A program made the translations under genes and the position numbers. From Candidatus Poribacteria bacterium (lineage in GTDB: Bacteria; Poribacteria; WGA-4E; JAJDTR01): DNA of 64,000 nucleotides. This document shows, in pieces, positions 2,880-59,236 of the stretch. Numbering within the stretch: the stretch's first letter is position 1; each line of letters starts with the position of its first letter. The stretch spans positions 3,616,001 through 3,680,000 of the forward strand of contig CBDCTK010000002.1 of the NCBI GenBank assembly GCA_965222225.1, in the 5' to 3' direction. The notes below the pieces were generated by a model. That model searched no databases. It was given only the letters and a program-made list of their open reading frames with translations, and was not told the origin of the DNA.

Positions 2880-3133
2880 TCGTTACAACGTCTGTGCTCA
2901 TCCCTCACGCCGTACATTCCGAACCTGAAAATCTCGCCAATTGGTGCCGTGGATACACCGTTGGCTGTCAAGGTTCGGTCTTTGTTTATTGTAGCCTGTT
3001 TGCTTTTGGCAAACTGTCGTTGGAGTTTTGCGGTTCAGAGGTACTCTTTCTCCTGATTGCGCTGCTGACGGGAGCCCAAACCTATCAAGGATTGCCGTTC
3101 AATGGGGCTAGGGGTGAAGAAGAAGAGGTGTAA
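2880..3133 (+). pseudogene. Possible C-terminal remnant of a membrane transporter (sodium:solute symporter-like)
   Basis: Translation ...GSVFVYCSLFAFGKLSL...LFLLIALLTG...EEEEV* ends just before kdsB and resembles the last helices of SSS proteins. Weak match. Confidence 0.3.
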
Positions 3134-3137
3134 CAGC

Positions 3138-3863
3138 ATGAAAACCGTAGGGGTAATTCCCGCGCGGTACGCGTCAAGTCGATTTGAAGGCAAGCCGCTG
3201 GTGGACATTCGCGGTAAACCGATGATTCAGCATGTCTATGAGCGGGCCTCACGCGCCAAGAGGCTAGACGAGATTGTGGTTGCCACCGATGATTCGCGTA
3301 TCCACGACGCGGTTAGGGGCTTTGGTGGGAAAGTGGTCATGACGCCGGAGTTCCCCACAGGGACGGATCGGGTGGCATATGTGGCGGAACATTTGAGGTG
3401 CGATGTTGTCGCCAACCTACAAGGCGACGAGCCGCTGCTCGAACCGATGATGCTCGACCAGATGATTCAGCCGTTTCAGGACAATCCGGAGGTACAGGTC
3501 AGCACGCTAAAACAGCGTGTCGATAACGAAGCGGAATATCGGGATGTCAATGTTGTGAAGGTTGTCACCGATCTGGACGGATTCGCCCTGTACTTCTCCA
3601 GAGCGTCCATCCCCGGAAACCTCTCGAACGATTGGATAGAAACCAATCCAATTTATCGTCACGTCGGGCTTTACGCCTATCGGAAAGAGTGCCTGCTGAC
3701 TTTCACGAAGTGGGCGCGCGCGCCGTATGAGAGTTCGGAAGGCTTGGAACAGTTGCGTTTCATGGAACACGGTGTCGGGATTCGCGTCGTTGAGACGGAG
3801 CATCGGTTGATCGGTGTAGATGTGCCCGCAGATTTGGAGCGCGTTCTTTCGATCATGGAGTGA
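3138..3863 (+). CDS. kdsB: 3-deoxy-manno-octulosonate cytidylyltransferase
   Basis: IPARYASSRFEGKPL, TGTDRV, NLQGDEP, ALYFSR, HVGLYAYR and EGLEQLR motifs. SD gaggtg before ATG at 3138. Confidence 0.97.
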   Translation: MKTVGVIPARYASSRFEGKPLVDIRGKPMIQHVYERASRAKRLDEIVVATDDSRIHDAVRGFGGKVVMTPEFPTGTDRVAYVAEHLRCDVVANLQGDEPLLEPMMLDQMIQPFQDNPEVQVSTLKQRVDNEAEYRDVNVVKVVTDLDGFALYFSRASIPGNLSNDWIETNPIYRHVGLYAYRKECLLTFTKWARAPYESSEGLEQLRFMEHGVGIRVVETEHRLIGVDVPADLERVLSIME

Positions 3864-42572: not shown

Positions 42573-44171
42573 TCATTCGACTCTATTCGGTTGCTCTGCC
42601 CGGTGTCGATAGACTTGCAGGTTTTCTGTGGAATGAATCAGTTCGTAATCCGTATCCAGACTATCTATTATTTCCCGCACATGCACGCCGGAAGGGCCAC
42701 CACCTCTGTAAAATTTCGATTTGTCCATCTTCCATGCCACTATGTAATCGACCGCTCCTGAATGTTTGATTCTCCAATCCAGAGGAAAGTAATCAAACTG
42801 GGGTTCGTAATTGCTCAGACTGACACAGTTGTTACTCAAGCAGTAATAGCTGCTAGCCTGAACAAACGGGCGCACATGGTGATACGGCTGGTGAGTAAAC
42901 GGCGGCGGGTCCTTGACACCAGGACGGGCGTCTGACCAGAGTCCTAAGACGGTCTTGTTTCTTTCGATCAGCTCAACACCTGATGTATACTCTCTCGTAA
43001 TTTTGTCCAGAGAATAATAGTATCGGCAGCTTATGGAAAGACGGGCAACAGAAAGAATGACTATGATAATGATGATCCCGCGCTTGATGTATTTATGGTA
43101 ATCCTCACTGAGAAACGGCAACAGCACCGGAATAATAAACAGATTCACACGGTAATTGATAAAACCGCCGCTCGCCATCCCCCCGGGCATAATGAAGTAG
43201 AGAACTGTGAAAACGCCGAAAATCAGCAGGAACTGGTTGTCCTGGCTCATAATCCTTCTTTCGCGGATTCTTTTATATAAAGTGACTGCGAATAACAGCC
43301 CCAGCATAATTGCCAAAATGCGCGTGGGGATGAGGTGAGCGTCGGTGAAAAACATCAACGACTTGATGCTGAGAAAATAATCCCACGTTTTCCAGTCGCT
43401 GAAACGCTCCCATCTCAGGTGCAAATGACCGTTATCTGCAACGACGTTTGAGAGAAGATAATTAGCCATGATGAAGTATAGCGGCAGCATACTGACCAGA
43501 AGTGCCATAACCCGTTTTGGTCTGCGATAGAAAGATGTGATAGATAGAAGAGTTAGCGAAAGTATGAGAAGGAGATAAGAGAGGATGTGACTGAAGTAGA
43601 TCAGGATGCACAACAGGTTGAGGATGGCTATCTTATTCAGGCTCAGATCTTCTTTGTGCTTCATGAAATAGCCCAATGCGAAGAAAAACAGTGGCACAGA
43701 AAGGGAAAAACTGTAGAATCCCATGTGCAGCAGGTAGTGATAGCTGAACAGAAACCCCACAAAACCGTATAGATTCTTCCCCTTGTGTACCGCGCCAACA
43801 AAATAGAAAAGTGACAATGGTAACAAGCTGATGATAGCGCTCAGATGGATTTTTTCCGCTATTAAAGGAGGGAAAATCTTCATCAGCAGTGACATGAAGG
43901 CATGTGAGGACCAGTTGGGGAAAAGTCTGAGATTGAGTTTGTGATATTCCCTCAAGAGAGTTGATTCTTCATCATGGAATGCACTCAACACATACGAGTT
44001 ATAGACGTGGGCTGGCCCGTCCTGGGTTGGGAAATACTTAAAAACCCACAGCGGCAAGATATGCAAGACGATGAGCAAAGCGATAACAAGTCTTTTCCTT
44101 CGTACCGAGGGATCTGTCTCCTTCCAACGTCCAAGAAGGGAACGCAGGATTGAGATTGCATATTTCAACAT
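42573..44171 (-). CDS. Multi-pass membrane protein, putative GT-C fold glycosyltransferase
   Basis: About 11-12 hydrophobic segments, a first periplasmic-loop motif FPTQDGPAH, and a soluble C-terminal domain. Confidence 0.65.
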   Translation of the reverse strand: MLKYAISILRSLLGRWKETDPSVRRKRLVIALLIVLHILPLWVFKYFPTQDGPAHVYNSYVLSAFHDEESTLLREYHKLNLRLFPNWSSHAFMSLLMKIFPPLIAEKIHLSAIISLLPLSLFYFVGAVHKGKNLYGFVGFLFSYHYLLHMGFYSFSLSVPLFFFALGYFMKHKEDLSLNKIAILNLLCILIYFSHILSYLLLILSLTLLSITSFYRRPKRVMALLVSMLPLYFIMANYLLSNVVADNGHLHLRWERFSDWKTWDYFLSIKSLMFFTDAHLIPTRILAIMLGLLFAVTLYKRIRERRIMSQDNQFLLIFGVFTVLYFIMPGGMASGGFINYRVNLFIIPVLLPFLSEDYHKYIKRGIIIIIVILSVARLSISCRYYYSLDKITREYTSGVELIERNKTVLGLWSDARPGVKDPPPFTHQPYHHVRPFVQASSYYCLSNNCVSLSNYEPQFDYFPLDWRIKHSGAVDYIVAWKMDKSKFYRGGGPSGVHVREIIDSLDTDYELIHSTENLQVYRHRAEQPNRVE

Positions 44172-46484: not shown

Positions 46485-46919
46485 TCAACTACATTCCACA
46501 TGTAGTGCACTACCGCCTTCACTTTGCCCACCAGGTTGTCGCAAGTTTTGAAGCAGGCTCAACGGCAAAGGTGGTGTCGATGTTTCCCGAATCTCGTCCG
46601 CGCTTAGTGCCTTGTCAGGGAAAATATACATCAGCAGTGACATGAAGGGATATGAGGACCAGTTCGGGGAAAGTGTGAGATTGAGTTTGTAATATTCCCT
46701 CAAGAGAGTTGATTCTTCATCATGGAATGCACTCAACACATACGAATTGTAAACGTGGGCTCGCCCGTCCTGGGATGGGAAGTATTTGAAGATCCATAGC
46801 GGCAAGATATGCAAGACGATGAGCAATGAGATAAGAATTCTTTTCCTCCGTACTGAGGGATCTGTCTCCTTCCAACGTCCAGGAAGGGAACTCAGACTTG
46901 ATATTGCTGATTTCAACAT
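46485..46919 (-). pseudogene. Chimeric remnant: duplicated N-terminus of the 42573..44171 protein fused to a LamG-like C-terminal tail
   Basis: The first ~100 aa are near-identical to the 44171 gene. The sequence then switches to DKALSADEIRE, and a shifted frame gives FAVEPASKLATTW(GKVK). Confidence 0.75.
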
Positions 46920-47062
46920 TCGCCTATATCCTTAATTGCTCAAATATATGTGTAGCGGCATCAGTTAAGTGCTTGGACAAATCTAATTCAATCTTTAGAC
47001 TTCCGAAGTCTTATACCAATTCCCGATCTATAGACCACTAATTATTCATTGGAGACCCGCGA

Positions 47063-47111
47063 TTTCAACTTTCAACGTTCAACTTTCAACGTTCAACTTC
47101 CAACGTTCAAC
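47063..47111. repeat. Tandem heptamer array, 7 x (T/G)TTCAAC
   Basis: tttcaac tttcaac gttcaac tttcaac gttcaac ttccaac gttcaac. A complementary array gttgaaa gttgaga gttggag lies at 47605-47625. Confidence 0.9.
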
Positions 47112-47114
47112 TTC

Positions 47115-47494
47115 TTACTTCTGGCGCCTTGCTCTGTTGTTCTCTGATGTTTTTATACTTGCGAAGAATATCTTTATCAATTCCTCCGTTTCAGACAGCA
47201 GTGGGTCGACTTTCGAGGGCGGTTTAATCATCGGTATGGCTTTGATTAGTCTCTTAGGCAACGAAGTGACTCCCGAAGTTCTTTGAGGCAAATTCTCATC
47301 TTGTGTACAAAGTCATTGATGGATTCGGCCGCTTGAGCTTCACCGTGATTCAAGCATGGAGAAGTCCCGGATCGCAATAACTGACCACCCACATGGTTTG
47401 CGGCACGCGTATTTGGAAGGGATTCGACCCATCGAATGATTCGAGCAGAATAGTCGAGCAGTCGTTGTTCAAGGTCAAATTCTTGTCTCGCCAT
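47115..47494 (-). pseudogene. Four-helix-bundle protein (23S rRNA-IVS / TIGR02436 family), frameshifted
   Basis: MARQEFDLEQR...QLLRSGTS...GEAQAAES..DFVHK..ICLKELRES. An extra AG in AGAGA near 47250 breaks the frame. Once restored it continues LIKAIP...ETEELIKIFFASIKT...QK*. Confidence 0.85.
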
Positions 47495-47770
47495 TTTCTC
47501 TCCTGCATTTGATGGTCGCAAGCACGGCAATCGACAACAAAAAATGCAAAAACGCCCAATTTCAACATCACAGCTGAACACATGGAAAAAGTCCGAACTT
47601 GGCCGTTGAAAGTTGAGAGTTGGAGTATATCAATGCCCCTGAAAGTTGGAGATATTATATCTATTAGTAGCCAAGAGATCAAGAAATGGTATTAGTCAGT
47701 ATCTATTAAGCCAAGTGTAGGCAAGATTCTCAAAATCGGGGGAAATAATCCTTAGTATCACTGCATTCTG

Positions 47771-48636
47771 TCAATTCTTGCCGATGCTCTTCTGCTTAAG
47801 CCAGCCCCATGTTGCTCGGAGCTTGCCACCAGGGGAGACAGGATACCCAGCAGGATCAAACCAGGCACCATTCTCGTCAGCGCCCGGTTCCCGTGTTAAC
47901 TGGATCATATCTCCGGTACCGTTGTCATTCGTAATTCAGACCTCACCCTTGGTGGCGATCAAGATCCTACCGTCATGAGTCCAGTCGGTCGGCCAGCCAC
48001 CCCAGTCCGGCCCAATCTTCGCGCTCAGGTTTCGTTGATTGCGGCCATCGGCATCCATAACCCAGGTTTGCAGTATCCCCTTTCGATCGCTCCAGAAGGC
48101 GATCTTTTTACGGTCAGGAGACCAGACTGGATCCCGGTCATGGGCGAGTTTTCTTGTTAGCCTGGTTTGATTGCGTCCATCGGCATCCATAACGTAGATT
48201 TCACTGTTCGCATCCCGCTCGGAGGCGAAGGCGATACGACCGTCAGGACCCCAGTCTGGCTGCATGTTTCCGATCCCCTCTTTAGTGTCTGTTAGTTGAC
48301 GTCAATTGCGACCATCGACATCTACACGGACGACTTGACGGGCTTCTTCAGGCACAAAGGTCTCGAAGACGATGCTTTTGCCGTCAGGAGACACCGATGG
48401 GCTCAGGTCGCCCACACCCGGACTGTCCGTTACCTGGCGTAGATTGCTACCATCGGCGTCTATAGCCAGAAGTCAGCCAGCCAACCGTCGTGAACCCTAT
48501 CGCTGGAAAAGGCGATAGTTTTACCGTCAGGAAACCATGCTGGATAGCCGTCCATGGCCACATTGTCTGTTAGCCTTCGTTCATTTTTCCCATCGGCATC
48601 CGCAACGTAGATTTCGTAGTCCTTATCTGATACCGC
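47771..48636 (-). pseudogene. 3' part of a split PD40/TolB-like propeller gene
   Basis: Paralogous to 56008..57012. Has a -1 deletion near 48465 and in-frame TGAs near 48313 and at 47936. Ends YPVSPGGKLRATWGWLKQKSIGKN*. Confidence 0.85.
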
Positions 48637-48770
48637 TAAAGACCTGTGAAGTAGAAGAATTTACCACGACGGCTCGAATCCAATCAGTATTTGGGTTTGA
48701 GCCGTTTTTCTGTGTCTATAATACCAACGTTTGCTGGACGGTCAAAACCTCATAGCGAGCGAGATATGCT

Positions 48771-48795
48771 GAGACTGTCAAGAATTTTGTGTAAG
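48771..48795. mobile_element. Possible IS256-family terminal repeat remnant
   Basis: GAGACTGTCAAGAATTTTGTGTAAG resembles IS256-family ends. No partner end was seen. Confidence 0.4.
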
Positions 48796-48814
48796 ATTCA
48801 CCCAATTTCCCAGA

Positions 48815-49780
48815 CTACCGCACAAGTCGTTTGAGCCACCCCCACGTCGTGATTTTCTTGCCTGCAGGAGATACCACAAAAAAAGGGTTAAACCAGTCAG
48901 GGTCAGCATCTCTTAAGGGATTGTGTGTTAGCTTTCGAGGATTCCGACCATCAGCACCTATCACGTAGATTTCAAAGTTGTCGTCTCTATGGGACGAGAA
49001 GGCAATGTGTCTACCATCAGGAGACCATGAGGGAGTCCAGTCATGGTCGCGATGGTTTGTTAGCCTTCGAGGATTCTCACCATTGGCGTCCATTACGTAG
49101 ATTTCCCAGTTCTCGTCTCTATAGGACGCGAAGGCAATGCGTCTACCACCAGCAATGCGTCTTTCAGCAGGCGACCATGAGGGATTACGGTCAGACCTAG
49201 GATTGTTTGTGAGGTTTCGGGGATTCTCACCATCGGCATCCATTACGTAGATTTCATCATTTCCATCTCTGTCAGACACGAAGGCAATGCTTTCACCATC
49301 AGGCGACCATGAGGGATTACGGTCAGACTTAGGATTGTTTGTGAGGTTTCGGGGATTCCCACCATCGGCATCCATTACGTAGATTTCCGAGTTCCCATCT
49401 CTCTCGGAATCGAAGACAATGCTTTCACCGTCAGGCGACCATGAGGGACACCCGTCAGGCAAGGGATTGTCTGTAAGCCGTTGCGGATTTTGACCATCGG
49501 CATCCATCACGTAAATTTCAGGGTTCCCAGCTCTCTGGGATGCAAAGACAATGGTTCCGCCACCAGGCGACCATGAGGGAAACCAGTCAGACGCGGGATT
49601 GTTTGTGAGGTTTCGAGGATTCAGACCATCGGCATCCATCACGTAGATTTCAGGGTTACCATCTCTCTCAGACCTGAAGGCAATCTGTGCTTGTACGTCA
49701 ACGCCTGCCATCAGAGTTGTCAGACTCAAGGCTAGAACGCTAGCTAGAACGAAATATGCGAGATTGTATTTCCGTTGCAT
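48815..49780 (-). CDS. Secreted PD40/TolB-like beta-propeller protein with the conserved C-terminal motif
   Basis: Signal peptide, about six IAF.S.RDGN.EIYVMDADG...LT..P..D..PSWSPDG repeats, tail VSPAGKKITTWGWLK. Confidence 0.9.
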   Translation of the reverse strand: MQRKYNLAYFVLASVLALSLTTLMAGVDVQAQIAFRSERDGNPEIYVMDADGLNPRNLTNNPASDWFPSWSPGGGTIVFASQRAGNPEIYVMDADGQNPQRLTDNPLPDGCPSWSPDGESIVFDSERDGNSEIYVMDADGGNPRNLTNNPKSDRNPSWSPDGESIAFVSDRDGNDEIYVMDADGENPRNLTNNPRSDRNPSWSPAERRIAGGRRIAFASYRDENWEIYVMDANGENPRRLTNHRDHDWTPSWSPDGRHIAFSSHRDDNFEIYVIGADGRNPRKLTHNPLRDADPDWFNPFFVVSPAGKKITTWGWLKRLVR

Positions 49781-50092
49781 CTTCTTTTGCTCCCTCCCCT
49801 ATCGGACTGAACTGTCACCGCACCCCGACTGTCATCACCTTGTTTATTGGACGAAACAAGCTGACGTTGGGTCTATTGAAAACAGATACAAGCTCCACAG
49901 GTGGCATGCTTTACAGGTATAGAGTGACTTGGTCTTGAAAGTGAATTGCCAACCGAGTAAGAATCTGATTCAGCCGTCTAGCAAACCGTGGTTTGATAGA
50001 CGGCTGAAGGCGACGCGAAACCTACGCTTTCTGCGTCAATACGCGCTTTCTGATGAGGGCATTTCATTCCTCATCGCTTTCCTCACCTCATC

Positions 50093-50218
50093 GTCCTGAT
50101 GCCGTTGGGTCATCCAGGCAATCATTGGTTCTGTCAGTGCCTGTGCGTTTGTAAATAGCACAGCGACGCTGAACAGTAGCACGCAACTTAGCGTGATATA
50201 CCCAAGTTTCTTTTTCAT
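50093..50218 (-). pseudogene. 5' part (signal peptide) of the split PD40 gene
   Basis: MKKKLGYITLSCVLLFSVAVL...MIAWMTQRHQD matches the start of 56008..57012 up to QD, exactly where 47771..48636 resumes (AVSDKD). Confidence 0.8.
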
Positions 50219-50387
50219 GGTAAATCGCCTTTTCAAGTTGTGGAAGCCCTGTAAAATCTACGAACCTTTCAGTTGGCAAAGTAGAACATGCCGCTGGCTT
50301 GTTCAGAATATGCTACCAGCTTGTTTCGTGGCGATACAGTATTTGATTGAATTATCAAACCACTACCTTTGGTAGGCCGGTACTATA

Positions 50388-50505
50388 TACTCAGCGTCGC
50401 ATAAAACTGCGCTTTTTTTACAGCAGTTCGTCTGAAGCGCAACGTGAAAGTAGCAGTGGCAGTAGCAGGACAGCTCAAAAGCGGAATTTATGCCGTTGCC
50501 AAGTA
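50388..50505. mobile_element. 118-bp MITE with TA duplication
   Basis: Imperfect TIRs TACTCAGCGTCGCATAAA / TTTATGCCGTTGCCAAGTA. Removing the element and one TA restores the sequence seen intact at 52833-52880. Confidence 0.75.
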
Positions 50506-50535
50506 TAAGAAGGTTCAAGCGTTAGGGAGGAAAGC

Positions 50536-51945
50536 CTATCGATGCACCTCGAATATGCTGTAGCCGTATGGCGGGAGCGGCAACTCCAGTGTTTTCTCCA
50601 CCTTTTGATGTTTCCCGCTAAAGATATCGACCAACTCCGTCTCCCAATCGAGATAAACCTCTATCATCGCATCTTCGCTCTGGAAGTTGAGCACTACGAG
50701 CAGCATCTCATTATCTGTAGTTGATGCGCGAAGGAATGCGTAGTATCGACCATCGTTGTTCGTAGGCAGCCGGCGTCTGGAACCCGTGGCGCAAAGTGCC
50801 GGATACTTCTGCCTGGCCTTCATAATCTCTTTGAGCTGTGATAGAAACCTCGTGGACCATATAGGTTCAAAGATACGGTCGCTGGCTACGAACAACTCAC
50901 CGACTGTCGCCAGCGACACCACTTCCAACAGCATCTGTGCCGGAGAGAGGTTTCCCGTCGTTTCCCCCATCACCCGCAAAGCCGGCCCTGACATGCCCCC
51001 CATTACCCCAGCCCATGTTACTCCGCCGGCTTTGACAACGCGGTCCCGGTACAGCCGCAGTTTAACCTCAATTCCTGTGGGATTGCCGGTTTCCAAGGCT
51101 AACCTGATGGCCTGCGCCCAACGCCGACCAACCCGCGAATCGCGGATTCCGTAGTCCTGTACGCTGTCATAGTGCCCGTCGGTAATCCACGGGACCGGGT
51201 CGCAGCGTATTCCGGCTCCTTCAGGAAGCACAAACGTATTTGGATATTCGTGGACCACGTCAGTAATCGTGCTGTTGTTCACCTCCCAAGTACAGTTGGT
51301 GTATTCAGGTACGGCGTCAACCATTATGCCGTCGACCCCTCTCTCCATCCAAAAGCGAACAACCCGCCTGCATTCCTCCTGCCACGACTCCTCTCCATAA
51401 TTAAACTGAGGCAAATCCTCATCGCCGGTACGGCCGCGCCATCTGACCCAATGGTACTTCCCTGCTCTCTCGCTGAATTGCCAACTACTTGAGTTTACCT
51501 CGACATCATTTAGGAAAAAAGGCACTTGGCTTCGATCCAGTTCGGCAGACTTGGTGTCGCTCCACACGAACCAGCGAGACTCTGGGCTGTCCACGCCGGC
51601 TTTCACATCGTCACAGGCCCGTATAAAGGGAGGAAACTCCGTGGCGGCGTAACCGAGGTTGAGAAAAGCCATGACGGCAATGTCTCTGTCGTGACACGCC
51701 GTAACGAGTTCATCAAAGTCATCCATGGTTCCAAGGGCGGGATCGACGGCATAGTAGTCGAGGACATCCAGCCCTGAGTACTGGATGCCTCCATGGTACG
51801 GGATGCCCATGCAAATAGCGTTAAAGCCCCACTCTTTGACCTCGTCGACCATTCCGATGATCTTTTTGAGCGTTCGGCCCTTGTGTTTGGGACTGGTAAA
51901 ATGCATTAGTGTAGCGTTTTCCCACCAACGGGGTTTCAAACTCAT
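50536..51945 (-). CDS. Alpha-amylase family (GH13) protein
   Basis: DYYAVDPALGTMDDFDELV..CH, LPQFNY, FWMERGVDG...D, and a C-terminal beta-sandwich. Confidence 0.85.
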   Translation of the reverse strand: MSLKPRWWENATLMHFTSPKHKGRTLKKIIGMVDEVKEWGFNAICMGIPYHGGIQYSGLDVLDYYAVDPALGTMDDFDELVTACHDRDIAVMAFLNLGYAATEFPPFIRACDDVKAGVDSPESRWFVWSDTKSAELDRSQVPFFLNDVEVNSSSWQFSERAGKYHWVRWRGRTGDEDLPQFNYGEESWQEECRRVVRFWMERGVDGIMVDAVPEYTNCTWEVNNSTITDVVHEYPNTFVLPEGAGIRCDPVPWITDGHYDSVQDYGIRDSRVGRRWAQAIRLALETGNPTGIEVKLRLYRDRVVKAGGVTWAGVMGGMSGPALRVMGETTGNLSPAQMLLEVVSLATVGELFVASDRIFEPIWSTRFLSQLKEIMKARQKYPALCATGSRRRLPTNNDGRYYAFLRASTTDNEMLLVVLNFQSEDAMIEVYLDWETELVDIFSGKHQKVEKTLELPLPPYGYSIFEVHR

Positions 51946-52180
51946 ATGTGTACTCCCTCCCTAACGGGCGCCCAAATGGGCTCCGTCCGTGAATTTCCCA
52001 AAACGAATCTTCGTATCACGATTCATAACGTGGTCCTCAGTATACCTTGTTCTCTTCGCCGGTTAAATCAATGTGTGGTTTCTTGCACGGTATATCGCCA
52101 TAGGGCATCAAAGTGATGTACGGTAGCTTAGAAGAGCCGCCGACTCCTTCCCATTTCACCCACGGACTTCTGAGTCCCAC

Positions 52181-52776
52181 TGCTCGCTCTGGGATGAGTC
52201 GGTAGACACTCAGGCTATTTTGCAAAAGATAACGTTCGATGAATTGCCAAGCTTCTTCTTTTGCAAAGTAGCTAATACCATTTCGCTTGAATAATAGTGC
52301 ATATAATGTCAGAATTATACCGTTTACTTTCTCCGTAGGCGGGGCATCTTGCCCCGCCGACTTTGCGCGGAGACAAGGCGTCTTACTCCGCTCCTCGCAA
52401 GTTTCTTTACTTGATACTTGATCCACGTAATCAATGCACTTGCATTTTAGAGAAATGGTATTAGCACTTGAGAAAGTCGATCATCACTGAAATCGGTAGG
52501 GCGGAGCGGTGTGCCAAGCAATTCGGAAAGAATATCCTGATGCTCAACCGCCCAATCCTCAACAGCCACTTTTCGGCGATCTCCTTCTGAAAGGACGTAG
52601 GCGATCCAACCGATGACCAATTGCCCAATTGATAGTTCTTGATGCAACCAGTGACGATTTATCGCCTCGTCAATCACATTATCAAGACCTAGATGCTGTT
52701 GTCGCGATATCAATAACGGAATGTCCTCAAGTCATTCGATGACGACTTCTTGATTGCGTTGAAATCGAGTAGTCAT
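52181..52776 (-). mobile_element. IS1634-like transposase 5' remnant, interrupted by a MITE
   Basis: DIPLL...LGL..VID...HW.HQ.LS.G...W.AY.LSEGD...DFSDDRL..VL / SYFAKEEAW..IE..L....VY.L. Confidence 0.7.
52276..52460. mobile_element. 185-bp MITE with the same TACCA(A/T)TTC end type as 47014..47691
   Basis: TIRs TACCATTTC...AGTGCAT (21/27 match) flanked by TAA/TTA. Excision leaving 3 bp restores the transposase frame. Confidence 0.75.
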
Positions 52777-52900
52777 ACTCTATCTCAACGTCTTACTTCA
52801 ACTTTTCAACTTCGCATTATGCGAACCGTAAGCACTACCTTTGGTAGTCCGATACTATAAGAAGGTTCAACCGTTAGAGGTATTATAATGTACCTCCCTA

Positions 52901-53141
52901 ATACTACAACCGCATTCAGTGGCGAGGACCTCTGTAGGGGCGGGTTCACTCTATGACAGAAACCGATGTGAGGTCGGCATTGCGTTCTATAACAAGGGCG
53001 TCAGTACGCCCGCTATGGCGGAAACCCGCCCAGAACAAATTCGAGGTTTCTCCTTTGACAACGCGGAGTCAGTGCAATGGAGTGTGTATCTGCAATAAAC
53101 GCCGTGTTAGCAAGATCAAATCTGCACCCACAAACACACTA
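52901..53141. repeat. ~230-bp direct repeat, copy 1
   Basis: Aligns with 55034-55256 (AACCGCATT, AGGGGCGGGTT.ACTCTATGACAGAAACCGA, ATGGCGGAAACCCGCCCA, GTGTGTATCTGCAAT, ACAAACACACTA). Confidence 0.85.
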
Positions 53142-53329
53142 ATGTGTATAGATCCGGTTGTAGTACTAAGTTGTATCTTCCGGTCGCGGCTCAAGCGAAA
53201 CCGCGAGGTCTCAGAGGGTGTTTCAAAAGGTAAACTTGAAGCTAAGAAAGCACAGCGGCCTTGGGTATCGTAATCTGAAGCATTTCTCCCTGCGTGCGCA
53301 GAGAAATGCGGACGCGCAGACGCTGTTTA

Positions 53330-53489
53330 GAGCTTGTTTGAATAATGGGCGGCAAAGAATTTTTAGGCTATTGGAGGCTGGTGCGCAGTGCGCACCCTAC
53401 AGGATTTCGCAAGAAGAAGCCGAGTTTTCAAGAAGAAACGCCGTTTCAGGACAAATTGCTCTAACGGAAATGAATTTTCAAACAAGTTC
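53330..53489. mobile_element. 160-bp MITE with IS5-like GAGCTTGTTTGAA ends
   Basis: GAGCTTGTTTGAA / TTCAAACAAGTTC ends with TTA direct repeats. A further matching right end lies at 54907-54926. Confidence 0.7.
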
Positions 53490-53518
53490 TTAGCACAGTA
53501 AATGTCAAAGAGCCTTTT

Positions 53519-54514
53519 CTATTCGCTCTTCTGCTTAAGCCAGCCCCATATTGCTCGGAGCTTGCCACCAGGGGAGACAGGATACCGAGCACGATCAAAC
53601 CAGGCAGGATTCTTGTCAGAGCCAGGAACTGCCGCTAGTCTGCGTTGCTTTTTCCCATCGGCATCCATAACGTAGATTTCATAGTTCCCATCCCGCTTGG
53701 AGTGGAAGGCGATACTTTTACCGTCAGGAGACCAGGCAGGAGACTCGTCCTTCGCGGGATCGTCTGTTAGTCTACGTTGATTTTTCCCATCGGCATCCAT
53801 AACGTAGATTTCCTCGTTCCCGTCTCGCTTGGAGTGGAAGGCGATACTCTTACCGTTAGGAGACCAGTCTGGATCCCGGTCCTTCGCGGGATTGTTTGTT
53901 AGCCTGTATTGATTCTTTCCATCGGCATCCATAGCGTAGATTTCACTGTTTCCATCCCGCTCGGAGTAGAAGACGATACTTTTACCGTTAGGAGACCAGT
54001 CTGGAGAACTGTCAGTCGCGGGATTGTTCGTTAGCCTGGTTTGATTGTTCCCATCGGCACCCATAACGTAGATTTCCTTGTTACCGTCCCGATCGGACCA
54101 GAAGGCGATCCTTTGAGCGTAAGGATGCCAGGCTGGATTGCCGTCACTCGGGGCATTGTCGGTTATCTGGCGTTGATTTTTCCCATCGGCATCCATAACG
54201 TAGATTTCAAAGTCCCCACCCCGACTGGAGTAAAAGGCGATACTTTTACCGTCAGGAGACCAGTCTGGATTTTGGTCGAAGGGCTCGTTGACTTCAACTT
54301 CAAAAAAGTCACCTCCCGTTACGTCGCGTTGATTCTCCCCATCGACATCCATAACGTAGATCCTCATACCCCACAAGATATCAAGATTGCCCTTGTCCCG
54401 AGAGGTCTGGAAGGCGATCTTTGCTTCTTCGCGCGCTTGTGCGGGTATAGATAGCGCAACGCCACTCAACACTAGGACGCAACTTAGCGCGATACGCATA
54501 AGTTTCTTTTTCAT
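53519..54514 (-). CDS. Secreted PD40/TolB-like beta-propeller protein with the conserved C-terminal motif
   Basis: Signal peptide, about six WSPDGKSIAF.S.RDGN.EIYVMDADG repeats, tail VSPGGKLRAIWGWLK. Confidence 0.9.
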   Translation of the reverse strand: MKKKLMRIALSCVLVLSGVALSIPAQAREEAKIAFQTSRDKGNLDILWGMRIYVMDVDGENQRDVTGGDFFEVEVNEPFDQNPDWSPDGKSIAFYSSRGGDFEIYVMDADGKNQRQITDNAPSDGNPAWHPYAQRIAFWSDRDGNKEIYVMGADGNNQTRLTNNPATDSSPDWSPNGKSIVFYSERDGNSEIYAMDADGKNQYRLTNNPAKDRDPDWSPNGKSIAFHSKRDGNEEIYVMDADGKNQRRLTDDPAKDESPAWSPDGKSIAFHSKRDGNYEIYVMDADGKKQRRLAAVPGSDKNPAWFDRARYPVSPGGKLRAIWGWLKQKSE

Positions 54515-55033
54515 CGTAAACCTCCTTGGAGCTCTGATGCCTTACATGAAAACAGTGACGGTTCTTTTCGCTTGGTCTCAATACGTCGCTTCGTTCCTAC
54601 TCGACCAGCGTTCGCTAATTGACAAAGAATACTAGACGGTTAGGGTAACATTTTTTGTAACTGTTTAGTTCAGTTTATGGAACTGGAAAAAGAGCACCGC
54701 ATTATGGCAATCGCACCTGATTCTAGAGCTGGAGAGATCTTCTTTGCAATCACTAAATTACTGATTTTCCTCGTTCTCTTTACACGAGCATCAAAAGCCC
54801 CAGCGGGCGACACGTGTATAGAAACGTGGATTCACCACACACCCCAAGCCCCAGAGGGGCGACATGTGCATAGAAACTCAAATGGCCGAAAATGGCTCTC
54901 CCCCCTATTATTCAAACAAGCTCTAAGCAGTTACCATTTTTTAAAACCACAGAGGCACGAAGACACGGAGTTTTTTCTTTTCTCTGTGTTGCTTCTGTGC
55001 CTTCGCGGTAAAAATGAATTAACTCAATGATTC

Positions 55034-55256
55034 ATACTAGAACCGCATTTAGGGGCGGGTTTACTCTATGACAGAAACCGAATGTCAGGTGGGCATTGCG
55101 TGTCATAACAAGGGCGTCAATACACCCGATATGGCGGAAACCCGCCCAAGGCAGATTTGGGTTTCTCCTTTGAGAACGCCGAGTCAGTGCAATGAAGTGT
55201 GTATCTGCAATGAACGCCCGGTTGGCAAGACTAAATCTGTCCCTACAAACACACTA
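55034..55256. repeat. ~230-bp direct repeat, copy 2
   Basis: Partner of 52901-53141. Confidence 0.85.
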
Positions 55257-55416
55257 GTGGTCAACCAAATTAGTTTATTGGGTTATTTCCGCTTTCCTCG
55301 GGCCCGCCCACCAAGGCGCCTCATTCCCTCCCCCTGACGGTTCAGGGGGCAGACAATTCTGGGAAAGCATAGCATTCTGGGTATTTCAAGTTGCGACTCT
55401 TCAAGTCCCCCTTTTC

Positions 55417-55537
55417 ATGAAGATTAACAATTTAATTCGGTAATTTCTTGGTGAAGCCCGGTAGGTGCGGTTAGGAAACCGGACCTACCGGGCCTGGGGG
55501 AAATATAGAATTACCGAAATATTTATTTAAACTTCAT
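55417..55537. repeat. Nested palindromic MITE/REP element
   Basis: ATGAAG..TTCGGTAATT / AATTACCGAA..CTTCAT arms surround CCGGTAGGT..ACCTACCGG. The element sits between CCCCCTTT and AAAGGGGG. Confidence 0.65.
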
Positions 55538-56007
55538 CCAAAGGGGGATTTAGGGGAATTTTTGAAATGTGAATCTCCTCGTCAAATCCCCCTAACCGCC
55601 CTTTACGAAAGGGTGGAACAAAAGTGTCCACCCCATTCATCATGAGTCCGTAAAGGGGGTAACATCTTGCATCCTCCTGGTGACAGATTTCTAGTTCTGT
55701 TTAAGAATAAACTGGCGGGATGCAAGGTTTCAGAGCGCGATTAAATTTAAAAGATACAACTTCCTGATAGGGGACACAAAAAACGACTCAAATCCAGAGT
55801 TGGACTGAATTTGAGCCATTTGAAAAAACTATTGGTTTTCAGCTTATCGTGTATTGGTCAAGATGATGAGTTACACCCCCATTTGGATGCCCGACTTCAG
55901 TCGGGGGCGATGGCCGTCTCGACTGAAGTCAAGCATCCAGCGTCAAGAGACTGTGCGTATTTAACGGCGCACTGCCAATCATCTTGTTGACCAATACAGT
56001 TTCTAGC

Positions 56008-57012
56008 TTATCGACTGCTCTTGATTTCTCCCCATGAGGTTGTCAGCTTGCCAGCAGGGGAGACAGATGTGGGCGGCGGGGCAAAAGCAGGATCAAAGTA
56101 GACACCATTTAACTCCCCTGCGTCCACTATCAGCTCGCTCGCCTCGGAAGTACCGTCGGCATTCGCAATCCAGGTATGGCCCCCGCCGTTGATCAAGATC
56201 CTACCGTCAGGAGTCCAGTCGCTCGGCCAGCCACCTCCAGGTCCATCGGGGAAGGCTTCTTTGATCATCGCACTCAGGTTTCGTTCATTGCCGCCATCGG
56301 CATCCATAACCCAGGTTTGCAGCCCATCAGCTCGATTGCTCCAGAAGGCGATACTTTTACCGTCAGGAGACCAGACTGGATCCCGGTCAGTGCCGAGACT
56401 GCCTGTTAGCTTGATTTGATTGCTTCCATCGGCATCCATAACCCAGATATCATCGTTCCCGCCCTGCCCGGAGGAGAAGACGATACGACCGTCAGGCCCC
56501 CAGTCTGGCTGTACGTTTCCGATCCCTTCTTCACTGTCTGTTAGTTCACGTCGATTGCTACCATCAATATTTACACTGACGATTTGACGGAATTCATCAG
56601 GCGCATAGGTCTCGAAGCAGACACTTTTGCCGTCAGGAGAGAACGATGGGCCCAGGTCACCCACAGTCGGACTGTCCGTTACCTTGCGTAGATTGCTACC
56701 ATCGACGTTTATAAGCCAGATCTCAGCCAGCCAACCGTCGTGAATCCTATCGCTGGAAAAGGCGATAGTTTTACCGTCAGGAGACCATGCTGGATAGCCG
56801 TCCATGGCCACATTGTCTGTTAGCCTTCGTTCGTTACTCCCGTCAGCATTCGCAACGTAGATGTCGGAGTCCTTATCTGATACCGCAATGTCCTGATTCC
56901 GATTGGTCATCCAGGCAATCATTTGTGCGTCTATACATAGCACAGCGACGCTGAACAGTAGCACGCAACTTAGCGCGATACACGTAGCTTTCGTTCCCAT
57001 TTGCATTCTCAT
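56008..57012 (-). CDS. Secreted PD40/TolB-like beta-propeller protein with the conserved C-terminal motif
   Basis: SD GAAGGAG before ATG at 57012, signal peptide, WSPDG repeats, tail VSPAGKLTTSWGEIKSSR. Confidence 0.9.
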   Translation of the reverse strand: MRMQMGTKATCIALSCVLLFSVAVLCIDAQMIAWMTNRNQDIAVSDKDSDIYVANADGSNERRLTDNVAMDGYPAWSPDGKTIAFSSDRIHDGWLAEIWLINVDGSNLRKVTDSPTVGDLGPSFSPDGKSVCFETYAPDEFRQIVSVNIDGSNRRELTDSEEGIGNVQPDWGPDGRIVFSSGQGGNDDIWVMDADGSNQIKLTGSLGTDRDPVWSPDGKSIAFWSNRADGLQTWVMDADGGNERNLSAMIKEAFPDGPGGGWPSDWTPDGRILINGGGHTWIANADGTSEASELIVDAGELNGVYFDPAFAPPPTSVSPAGKLTTSWGEIKSSR

Positions 57013-57784
57013 GATAAACTCCTTCTTAAGTTTTGGATTCAAGTTTTGCAAGCCCTGTAAAATCTAAGCGTCAACATTGCAGGACTTCTGCACTAAAGAG
57101 GTCGATTCTACGACCTGCACAATGGTAACTATTCACCGCAGACACATTCTCACATAAATTATGCCGTACTCTTAGCCCAACTGTCAAGAAAATTCCAGCT
57201 TTAGATGGGAGCTGTCCATGTGTGACCGTTCCATAGACCTAATCTGCTAGTCTCACGGGGTTCAGGGGCAACAATCCAGTAAAATCAGGGGTTCAGTTCC
57301 AACTTGACATACCCCTCAAACCCGCAGCCGGGTTGACACGTTCAAACACCGTTTTATGGGAATTTGCCAAAACGGATGTTTTGGGGACGCAAAACAAGCG
57401 TCTTTTGGGCCAAGATCCGCCCCGGGTGTGGATTGATGCGGTTTGAGGGTGGAAGATCGTATGTCAACAAAATTGTGGATTTAACGGTCTCGTCCATGTC
57501 TCTCGTTATACCAGTTCCAGATCCAAATACCTCTAACCCTCCTTGGAGGATCAGTGATGGACGGAACTGCTTTCGTATTACTGCCGGCTGACGGCTCATC
57601 CTTGGCTCAGGAGTTCACCGGAGTAATTCATGTCAATGTAATTTAGGACGCGTCACTAAACCCGCCTTTGTACAAAAGTATAATACTGAGGTGCGTCAGG
57701 CCAAACGCACCTGATTAAGGTATAAGAAACTAAGGCCATCAAATCAAGATGGAACAACGCATCATTTCTTGTAGGACGGGCATT

Positions 57785-58381: not shown

Positions 58382-59236
58382 ATGGACATTTTGAATCTTA
58401 TGAAAGAGTTTCCAAATCAAGAATCTTGTCTCAGATTTATAGAGGAAAAACGTTGGAAGGACGGTGTTTGCTGTATCCACTGTGGCAGTGAAAAAGTTGG
58501 ACGCAAGAACAAAAACGACATTACTACTGGTTGGAATTGCTACGATTGTGAATCTAGCTTTTCGGCTACAGCAGGAACCATCTTCCATGGTACCAAGATA
58601 CCTCTCCAGAAATGGTTTTTGGCTATCTCAATTCTTTCCAATGCCAAGAAAAGCATATCGAGTTGTCAGCTTGCTCGTGACTTGGACATGAATCAAAAGT
58701 CCGCTTGGTATATGGCAATGCGCCTCCGTGAGAAAATGAGTGATAGTGATGAATTGCTGAAAGGGATAGTTGAAGCGGACGAAACCTATGTCGGCGGCAA
58801 ACCCAGAGCAAAATCTAAGAGAGGTAGAGGCACAAATAAATCTCCCGTCATCGGCGTAGTCGAGAGAGGCGGTCGGGTGGTTGCTAAATTCATGAAGGTT
58901 CTATCTGGTGAAAATATCAGAGAATTCATCCTTAGCAATGTCTCACCCGATGAGTCTATTCTTATGACTGATGAATTTCGCTCTTACAATAGTCTGGACG
59001 AAGATATCGAAAGACATGTTATCCATCACCAAGAGAGATATGTTTCTGAGGACGGCGTAACTCACACCAACACCATCGAGTCGTTTTGGGCTTGTGTCAA
59101 GAGGTCATTCTACGGAACGCATCATCACTACAGCAAGAAGTGGCTGCCACTGTATATCATGGAGTCTTGCTGGAAATATAATCGCAGAAAAGATGATGAG
59201 ATTTTCATAAGATTTTTTGATGAATGCTTCACCTGA
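58382..59236 (+). mobile_element. IS1595-family (ISXO2-like) transposase
   Basis: N-terminal Zn ribbon, GTIFHGTKIPLQKWF, VEADETYVGG, MTDE, HTNTIESFW. AT-rich. Element ends not resolved. Confidence 0.93.

Follow-up and report, generated by a model that had tools for sequence, protein, structure and literature searches.

A short C-terminal tail of Poribacteria as a probable miniature label for the cell surface

The window analysed here is a 64,000-nucleotide stretch of a Candidatus Poribacteria genome (contig CBDCTK010000002.1, positions 3,616,001 to 3,680,000), in which a basic tail of about 20 residues ends several secreted beta-propeller proteins. This tail, shared by many unrelated exported proteins of the sponge-symbiont group, probably represents a miniature cell-surface address label, as yet undescribed, since it sits where related bacteria place the signal for type IX secretion (T9SS). 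By its sequence profile, it is homologous to the junction ahead of the poribacterial T9SS C-terminal domain (CTD), and it can occupy the CTD slot of one passenger domain. Regarding its exact role, we lean modestly towards a minimal, fold-less sorting signal of a divergent T9SS-like system of Poribacteria and some other FCB-group phyla.

The tail and its passengers

The tail consensus, x-[AS]-V-x-P-x-[GD]-K-x-x-T-T-W-G-x-[ILV]-K, spans 17 columns and is followed by a few residues, mostly 1-7. The initial annotation of the window had given the pattern as V-[SE]-P-x-[GS]-K-x4-W-G-x-[LIV]-K; the shared motif is real, but the consensus is wider than that pattern. The net charge of the tail region is approximately +2.3, and W and K are invariant across 80 aligned tails. 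No hydrophobic run is seen in the aligned tails, which agrees with the initial statement that a transmembrane (TM) helix is missing.

A six-frame scan of the genome for W-G-x-[LIVM]-K, free of any positional filter, gives 168 matches, 123 of which lie 1-7 residues ahead of a stop codon. The 17-column matrix, built from 87 seeds picked as C-terminal, reports 147 genome matches of at least 15 bits (133 within 12 residues of the stop) vs 1 on the reversed sequence. With one indel allowed, the corresponding numbers are 146 and 2, and 138 matches lie within 25 residues of the stop. The adjacency of the short-motif matches to stop codons and the near-zero matrix counts on reversed sequence argue that the tail is not a product of chance. 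Tail-bearing open reading frames (ORFs) thus number 138 in this genome, including 115 with a length of at least 200 aa. A crude heuristic assigns a signal-peptide-like N-terminus to 108 of these 115 full-length ORFs, vs 880 of 2324 background ORFs, and a lipobox is present in 0 of the 115. The initial annotation had suggested a proteome scan, which indeed returns many matches (138 ORFs), nearly all of them C-terminal and on exported, diverse passengers. It had also named internal occurrence as evidence against a sorting tag; the motif does occur internally, yet always directly ahead of a T9SS type A CTD.

After removal of the tail, BLAST divides the 115 ORFs into 13 clusters (57, 37, and 7 members, four clusters of 2, and six of 1), the cluster of 57 being the LamG cluster. 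Pfam, applied to 41 of the 115, reports LamG, PD40, Kelch, BNR/sortilin, cohesin, DUF3108-like, and DUF5074 domains, with 6 proteins assigned to no family and the tail left unmatched. Together with the NCBIfam scan, these 13 clusters bear out what was initially described, a C-terminal tag that is portable among exported proteins with many different folds; the libraries have no model for it. The concern, raised at the same time, that the motif is confined to propellers as their closing (velcro) strand fails, since 57 of the 115 passengers belong to the LamG cluster and others are cohesin or DUF3108-like.

As for the isolated tails, NCBIfam reports no match on 80 of them and Pfam only three single weak ones. 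Against the PDB, the tail profile finds nothing better than E=0.43, and the tail alone gives no usable match as an Atlas query. Neither this tail nor the sister form introduced below was found described in the literature searched, in which subscription journals were thinly covered and supplements lay outside the search.

Across the phylum, matches to the tail profile are present in 121 of 121 genomes of Poribacteria from 19 genera (per-genome counts refer to the best 66 matches scored in each), compared with 0 of 5 genomes outside Poribacteria. It finds 744 representatives at 50% clustering, the best 150 of which are nearly all C-terminal. The initial notion of a lineage-specific tag is too narrow, because the tail is phylum-wide and has a sister form in other phyla. 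Two candidate tandem tails (P0007 and P0088) were rejected as repeat-protein false positives. A CBM9-like secreted protein (L073:2796-3515) has a degenerate tail that retains only the W-G-x-I-K part and aromatic residues.

A size limit, with tail proteins of 203-424 aa and CTD ORFs of at least 463 aa (8 short ones excepted), was considered but abandoned, since in other Poribacteria the tail is also found at the end of ORFs of 723-1310 aa. One LamG domain, which shares 59% identity with a LamG that carries the tail, heads a cohesin-like, dockerin-like gene, with a CTD in the next ORF. Fusions of an ECF sigma factor, a TM helix, and a conserved linker to Kelch (or FG-GAP, WD40) domains form a large family (P0031, P0188-P0306), which belongs to Poribacteria where the taxon is named. 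Among 120 homologs of the ECF-sigma/TM N-terminus, 84 have tail-ended cargo, 2 have the motif plus a CTD, and 34 have neither, some of these being incomplete. The family possibly represents signalling coupled to export or cleavage.

The type A CTD junction and the sister tail

The genome has 61 TIGR04183 matches. In 24 of its 62 CTD ORFs the tail motif stands directly ahead of the type A CTD, ending 96 residues from the stop, and the profiles of the tail and of this pre-CTD junction align in register (E=3.9e-5, probability 70.6). In other Poribacteria, motif and CTD together end several unrelated passengers, propeller-like and others, with passenger names read by eye. The phylum-wide set comprises 11 complete C-termini from 30 loci scored at least 5 bits, and the Trp of the pre-CTD motif is kept in L202, L206, L218, P0279, and P0291. 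FG-GAP is present in 3 of 3 tested members of the main motif-plus-CTD paralog family. At its start, the tail opens with (GSA)(VLI) in 114 of 138 cases vs a dipeptide background of 4%; X/(GSA)(VLI) is the cleavage-site preference given for PorU in the accessible part of PMC4560394.

Regarding structure, a first AlphaFold2 model from 20 sequences was too shallow, with pLDDT <50 for the motif and the first CTD strand. With 50 sequences, pLDDT is mostly >90 for the Ig fold and 52-72 for the motif, which has no regular structure and lies outside that fold, so that the motif is an extension rather than a strand of the CTD. Known cleavage sites are likewise extensions outside the Ig fold, according to the available sections of PMC11969387. 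The amphipathic helix initially proposed for the tail appears in the shallow model at pLDDT <50 only and is absent from the deeper one.

The exchange of tail and CTD concerns one Ig/FN3-like domain, for which we coin the name LPVEL from its sequences. It is linked to a sister tail (TWGxIKxLYR), searched for in metagenome stretches with the pattern T-W-G-x-I-K-x-L-[YF]-x-stop and present in at least 125 of them. The passengers of the sister tail are diverse and mostly have signal-peptide-like starts. Six sister-tail proteins (L078, with the ORF at 3004-3396, L145, L152, L120, L076, and L180) consist of one LPVEL-type domain and the tail. A single-sequence query for longer homologs of L078 returned none, but the LPVEL profile (A7, which excludes the tail) found 44; PF18962 is present in 37 of these, and 40 have the domain ending 60-115 residues short of the C-terminus. 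In Bacteroidota and Ignavibacteria, the LPVEL domain precedes a CTD. In Poribacteria, the profile matches 33 of 41, and among 10 loci fetched, 7 have the poribacterial tail and then a stop immediately behind the domain; the remaining 3 are other FN3-like proteins without a tail. The initial annotation had set the tail apart from the T9SS, a separation that is not supported in view of the homology to the CTD junction and the swap with CTDs on this domain.

Among the sister matches listed, Arg is the last residue in 104 of 125, [ST] precedes TWG in 71 of 125, and the start is [TVS][PASG][VTAI] in 79 of 125, all at positions that the search pattern left free. The profiles of the two tails (A1 vs A3) match at 94.9%, but since TWG-x-IK was the criterion by which the sister set was chosen, this value is in part circular; the poribacterial and sister tails are likely homologous. 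Ten sister-tail clusters were looked up, 2 of which are named Eisenbacteria and 1 Ignavibacteriales, and the Atlas neighbours of one sister-tail protein belong to Eiseniibacteriota and Krumholzibacteriota. In the flanks of 78 sister loci, FlgD-Ig CTD genes occur at 9 (two from one contig) and PorU-like pieces at 2. In 81 genomes from the phylum to which a Gemmatimonadetes-titled record belongs, a looser tail pattern stays at the control level.

The genes of the six small secreted proteins that consist of an LPVEL-type domain and the sister tail lie amid housekeeping genes, with purD-like and maf-like neighbours in L078, L145, and L152; these proteins could be a component rather than cargo. A second one-domain family of small secreted proteins with the sister tail (L134, L153, L165, and L169) has a tail start that resembles the poribacterial form, and a Rex-like regulator adjoins it in L134 and L153. 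L134 was also considered as a relative of the CTD protein beside PorU and rejected as unrelated.

Secretion machinery and competing explanations

According to the family models, the genome has 17 PorV-family matches, 9 of them over the cut-off. Two C25 proteins fall under the PorU cut-off (408 and 403 vs 420 bits), with the His and Cys motifs kept in both, and a SprA-like protein of 2139 aa falls under its curated cut-off (161 vs 200 bits). In 20 of 20 Poribacteria chosen across families, SprA-, PorV-, and C25/PorU-like genes are all present, with 2-5 C25 matches each. These genes bear on the export route of poribacterial CTD proteins, which Kamke et al. 2014 (PMC3909097) left open because, in the portion of that paper available, CTD proteins were reported and Por structural genes were not found. 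PorV paralogs often adjoin a large CTD-like gene (L058, L064, L068, L069, L071, L074, and L075), which suggests cognate cargo-shuttle pairs, and some are fused, e.g., PorV-OmpA at L072:5171-7693. The main PorV of G002 has a gene with the tail (L248:502-1308) immediately upstream.

The tripartite signals LPXTG, PEP-CTERM, MYXO-CTERM, and GlyGly-CTERM combine a motif, a TM helix, and a basic cluster, and are short, portable, and C-terminal. The tail is likewise short, portable, C-terminal, and basic-ended, but differs by the absent TM helix and the lack of an NCBIfam match; TIGR02595 has 0 matches in the genome in a search without a positive control. With the T9SS type A CTD (TIGR04183 / PF18962, FlgD-Ig-like PF13860) it has in common the Sec signal paired with a C-terminal signal, diverse passengers, the X/(GSA)(VLI) start, the LPVEL slot, and the same genomes, the motif itself forming the poribacterial junction. 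In contrast, the type A CTD is a seven-stranded Ig sandwich of 67-108 residues with motifs B, D, and E (the PorV-binding strands), whereas the tail of ~20 residues has neither the sandwich nor these motifs and aligns only upstream of the Ig fold. Its conserved W-G-x-[ILV]-K is not seen ahead of 38 of the 62 local type A CTDs, and neither TIGR04183 nor PF18962 matches the tail proteins scanned.

The short CTDs of Prevotella intermedia (40-55 residues) are, in the available text of PMC11969387, shortened T9SS signals that are still cleaved and glycosylated and share the aliphatic +2 residue with the tail. They keep three strands at the PorV-binding end, with motifs B, D, and E retained for PorV binding, whereas all that the tail retains is the opposite end, with the cleavage site. 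A precedent for dedicated shuttle barrels that each read a signal of their own comes from type B CTDs and their PorP-SprF partners (PMC12618676), and the present genome has its 17 PorV-family matches. Type B CTDs are folded domains, however, and PorP/SprF was not found in this genome.

If the tail is a T9SS-like sorting signal, its proteins would be exported by Sec, and the passenger would then fold. A putative receptor associated with the T9SS (a carrier, a PorV paralog, or an accessory domain of PorU) would bind the basic K-x4-W-G-x-[ILV]-K part, a PorU paralog would then cut between x and the small residue of x-[AS]-V (the predicted site), and the cut passenger would be released or joined to a surface glycolipid. 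T9SS signals are folded domains throughout the accessible parts of the cited literature; a peptide-only signal would, if true, change what the translocon or its shuttles can recognise. It would also constitute a very small secretion or display tag and give an annotation to 138 ORFs here and, across the phylum, to dozens or more per genome. Because a cut site is predicted, this reading can be tested on sponge metaproteomes.

This reading draws on the motif directly ahead of the CTD, the LPVEL exchange, the ECF-sigma/TM N-terminus with either kind of cargo, the (GSA)(VLI) start together with the low-confidence motif outside the Ig fold, the SprA-like, PorV, and C25 genes of 20 of 20 genomes, and the control-level occurrence of the pattern in 81 genomes of another phylum. 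A number of points weigh against it. Export in P. gingivalis needs an intact CTD fold (PMC11285876, available in part), and the tail has no Ig sandwich, nor does it have motifs B, D, and E, which even the short Prevotella CTDs keep according to the same sections of PMC11969387. The motif is missing from 38 of 62 local CTDs, and most of the CTD ORFs that carry it come from a single paralog family in which L or F replaces W, while tails on LPVEL domains and many sister tails start without a small residue in register. As for the machinery, the SprA and PorU homologs score below the curated cut-offs, GldM has 0 matches in the genome (95% complete), GldN has 0 in a search without a positive control, with GldK and GldL not searched for, and PorP/SprF is likewise not found. 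A C25 gene is present without the tail in G125, only 1 of 20 genomes has a tail gene next to its main PorV, and PorV occurs in the flanks of 0 of 78 sister loci. Finally, the ECF-sigma fusions place the tail on proteins with an inner-membrane anchor, which implies an inner-membrane tether unless they are cut. Because the tail has none of the features known to be read by PorV, most local CTDs are motif-less, the machinery is unlinked, and the sigma fusions imply a tether unless cut, the tail is not filed as a CTD. The predicted complex of the tail with the main PorV, one of at least 8 PorV paralogs, scores 0.01 vs a mark of 0.32, a value that counts neither for nor against binding.

A wider version of the sorting-signal reading is tentative, and we would sooner doubt than assert it. 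It holds that a motor-less type IX-like system exists in several uncultured FCB-group phyla, with a second cargo class defined by a fold-free peptide of 10-20 residues that has its own receptor and PorU paralog. In Poribacteria, this system would display or release lectin-like and propeller proteins where the symbiont meets the sponge, well over a hundred of them per genome, and would also tag the outer domains of membrane-fused ECF sigma factors.

The strongest competitor, which we consider unlikely though less so than the others, is a docking or retention peptide independent of the T9SS. Such a peptide would bind a partner in the periplasm or a membrane, be it a scaffold protein, anionic lipid, or glycan, and keep lectin-like modules in the envelope, with CTDs appended behind it in some genes. 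The net charge of ~ +2.3, the invariant Trp, the tails on sigma-TM fusions, the missing PorV-binding strands, and the decay of Trp where a CTD follows all fit a docking peptide, but this does not account for why many passengers have the motif in a fixed register ahead of the CTD, why the tail occupies the slot of a CTD, or why it starts with (GSA)(VLI). It is improbable, in our estimate, that the tail serves export or processing of another kind (through a tail-specific protease, a transferase, or vesicle loading) with T9SS genes merely co-occurring in FCB-group phyla. Tail genes without a linked T9SS gene, the lack of a library model, and the strongly conserved terminal residues of the sister tail (a final R in 104 of 125 listed) are in line with such a route, but the homology to the CTD junction is then left without explanation, and the neighbourhoods of tail and sister-tail loci offer no candidate for it, no recurring dedicated partner gene being seen there. 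A structural element (the propeller closing strand) or a functionless relic of CTD loss, as the four window tails on PD40 paralogs and a region with several pseudogenes and recombined ends might suggest, is very hard to credit and largely refuted by the LamG, cohesin, and Ig passengers, given tails in 13 sequence families and at least six Pfam types, their retention in 121 of 121 genomes, and the invariant W and K in 80 aligned tails.

Tails and genes of the window

All five tails that the initial annotation had located within 10.5 kb are present at the positions it gave, four of them intact and one as a frameshifted remnant (Table 1). The intact tails 1-4 lie on the minus strand, each 3-7 residues ahead of the stop, and signal-peptide-like N-termini are present in 3 of 3 complete PD40 propellers, as had been claimed.

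Table 1. Coordinates of the tails and of the genes and remnants associated with them in the window
Feature	Position	Strand	Details
Tail 1, VSPAGKLTTSWGEIK	56020..56064	-	then 3 residues, stop
Tail 2, VSPGGKLRAIWGWLK	53534..53578	-	then 4 residues, stop
Tail 3, VSPAGKKITTWGWLK	48830..48874	-	then 4 residues, stop
Tail 4, VSPGGKLRATWGWLK	47795..47839	-	then 7 residues, stop
Tail 5, frameshifted remnant on LamG-like end	46517..46566	-	
Signal peptide + PD40 beta-propeller + tail 1	56008..57051	-	TTG-start ORF, 347 aa
Signal peptide + PD40 propeller + tail 2	53519..54514	-	331 aa
Signal peptide + PD40 propeller + tail 3	48815..49780	-	321 aa
5' remnant (signal peptide region) of further paralog, tail-less	50036..50236	-	
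PD40 pseudogene with tail 4	47771..48700	-	

For the 56008 gene, the ATG at 57012 is a likelier start than the TTG, and the best match of its product is a 92% identical protein in a Candidatus Poribacteria record. Two public runs have a one-base insertion at 56019, immediately past the conserved Lys codon of tail 1, which is consistent with free variation of the residues after K. The 47771 pseudogene has a body 84% identical to the 56008 gene and a tail-coding end identical to the 53519 gene at 61 of 62 bases; this combination of a 56008-type body with a 53519-type 3' end indicates that tail-coding ends recombine among paralogs. A contig from an independent run covers 47458-48448 without gaps and with 5 substitutions, and the RNA-library contigs that cover the region are uninformative on transcription, strand, and level. 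The tail-less remnant at 50036..50236 resembles the 56008 and 53519 genes at their 5' ends, with a nucleotide identity of 70-76%.

In tail 5, a 2-base frame change separates W from GKVK. Fused ahead of it is an incomplete duplicate (46617-46943, 89%) of the 5' end of a gene for a membrane protein at 42573-44171, and the resulting chimera consists of this duplicated 5' end, the LamG-like end, and an apparent insertion sequence fragment, which we take to be IS1.

As for the rest of the window, an ORF at 47050-47581, presumably four-helix-bundle-like, is followed by short tandem AAGTTGAACGTTG-type repeats. Several intergenic pieces are missing from other strains, and an intergenic segment of 210 bases is duplicated (52935-53144 and 55050-55259, 86%). 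Two tRNAs are the only Rfam matches, and the ORF at 58382-59236 presumably encodes an IS1595-like transposase. A palindromic repeat at 55403-55551 has very high depth in public runs.

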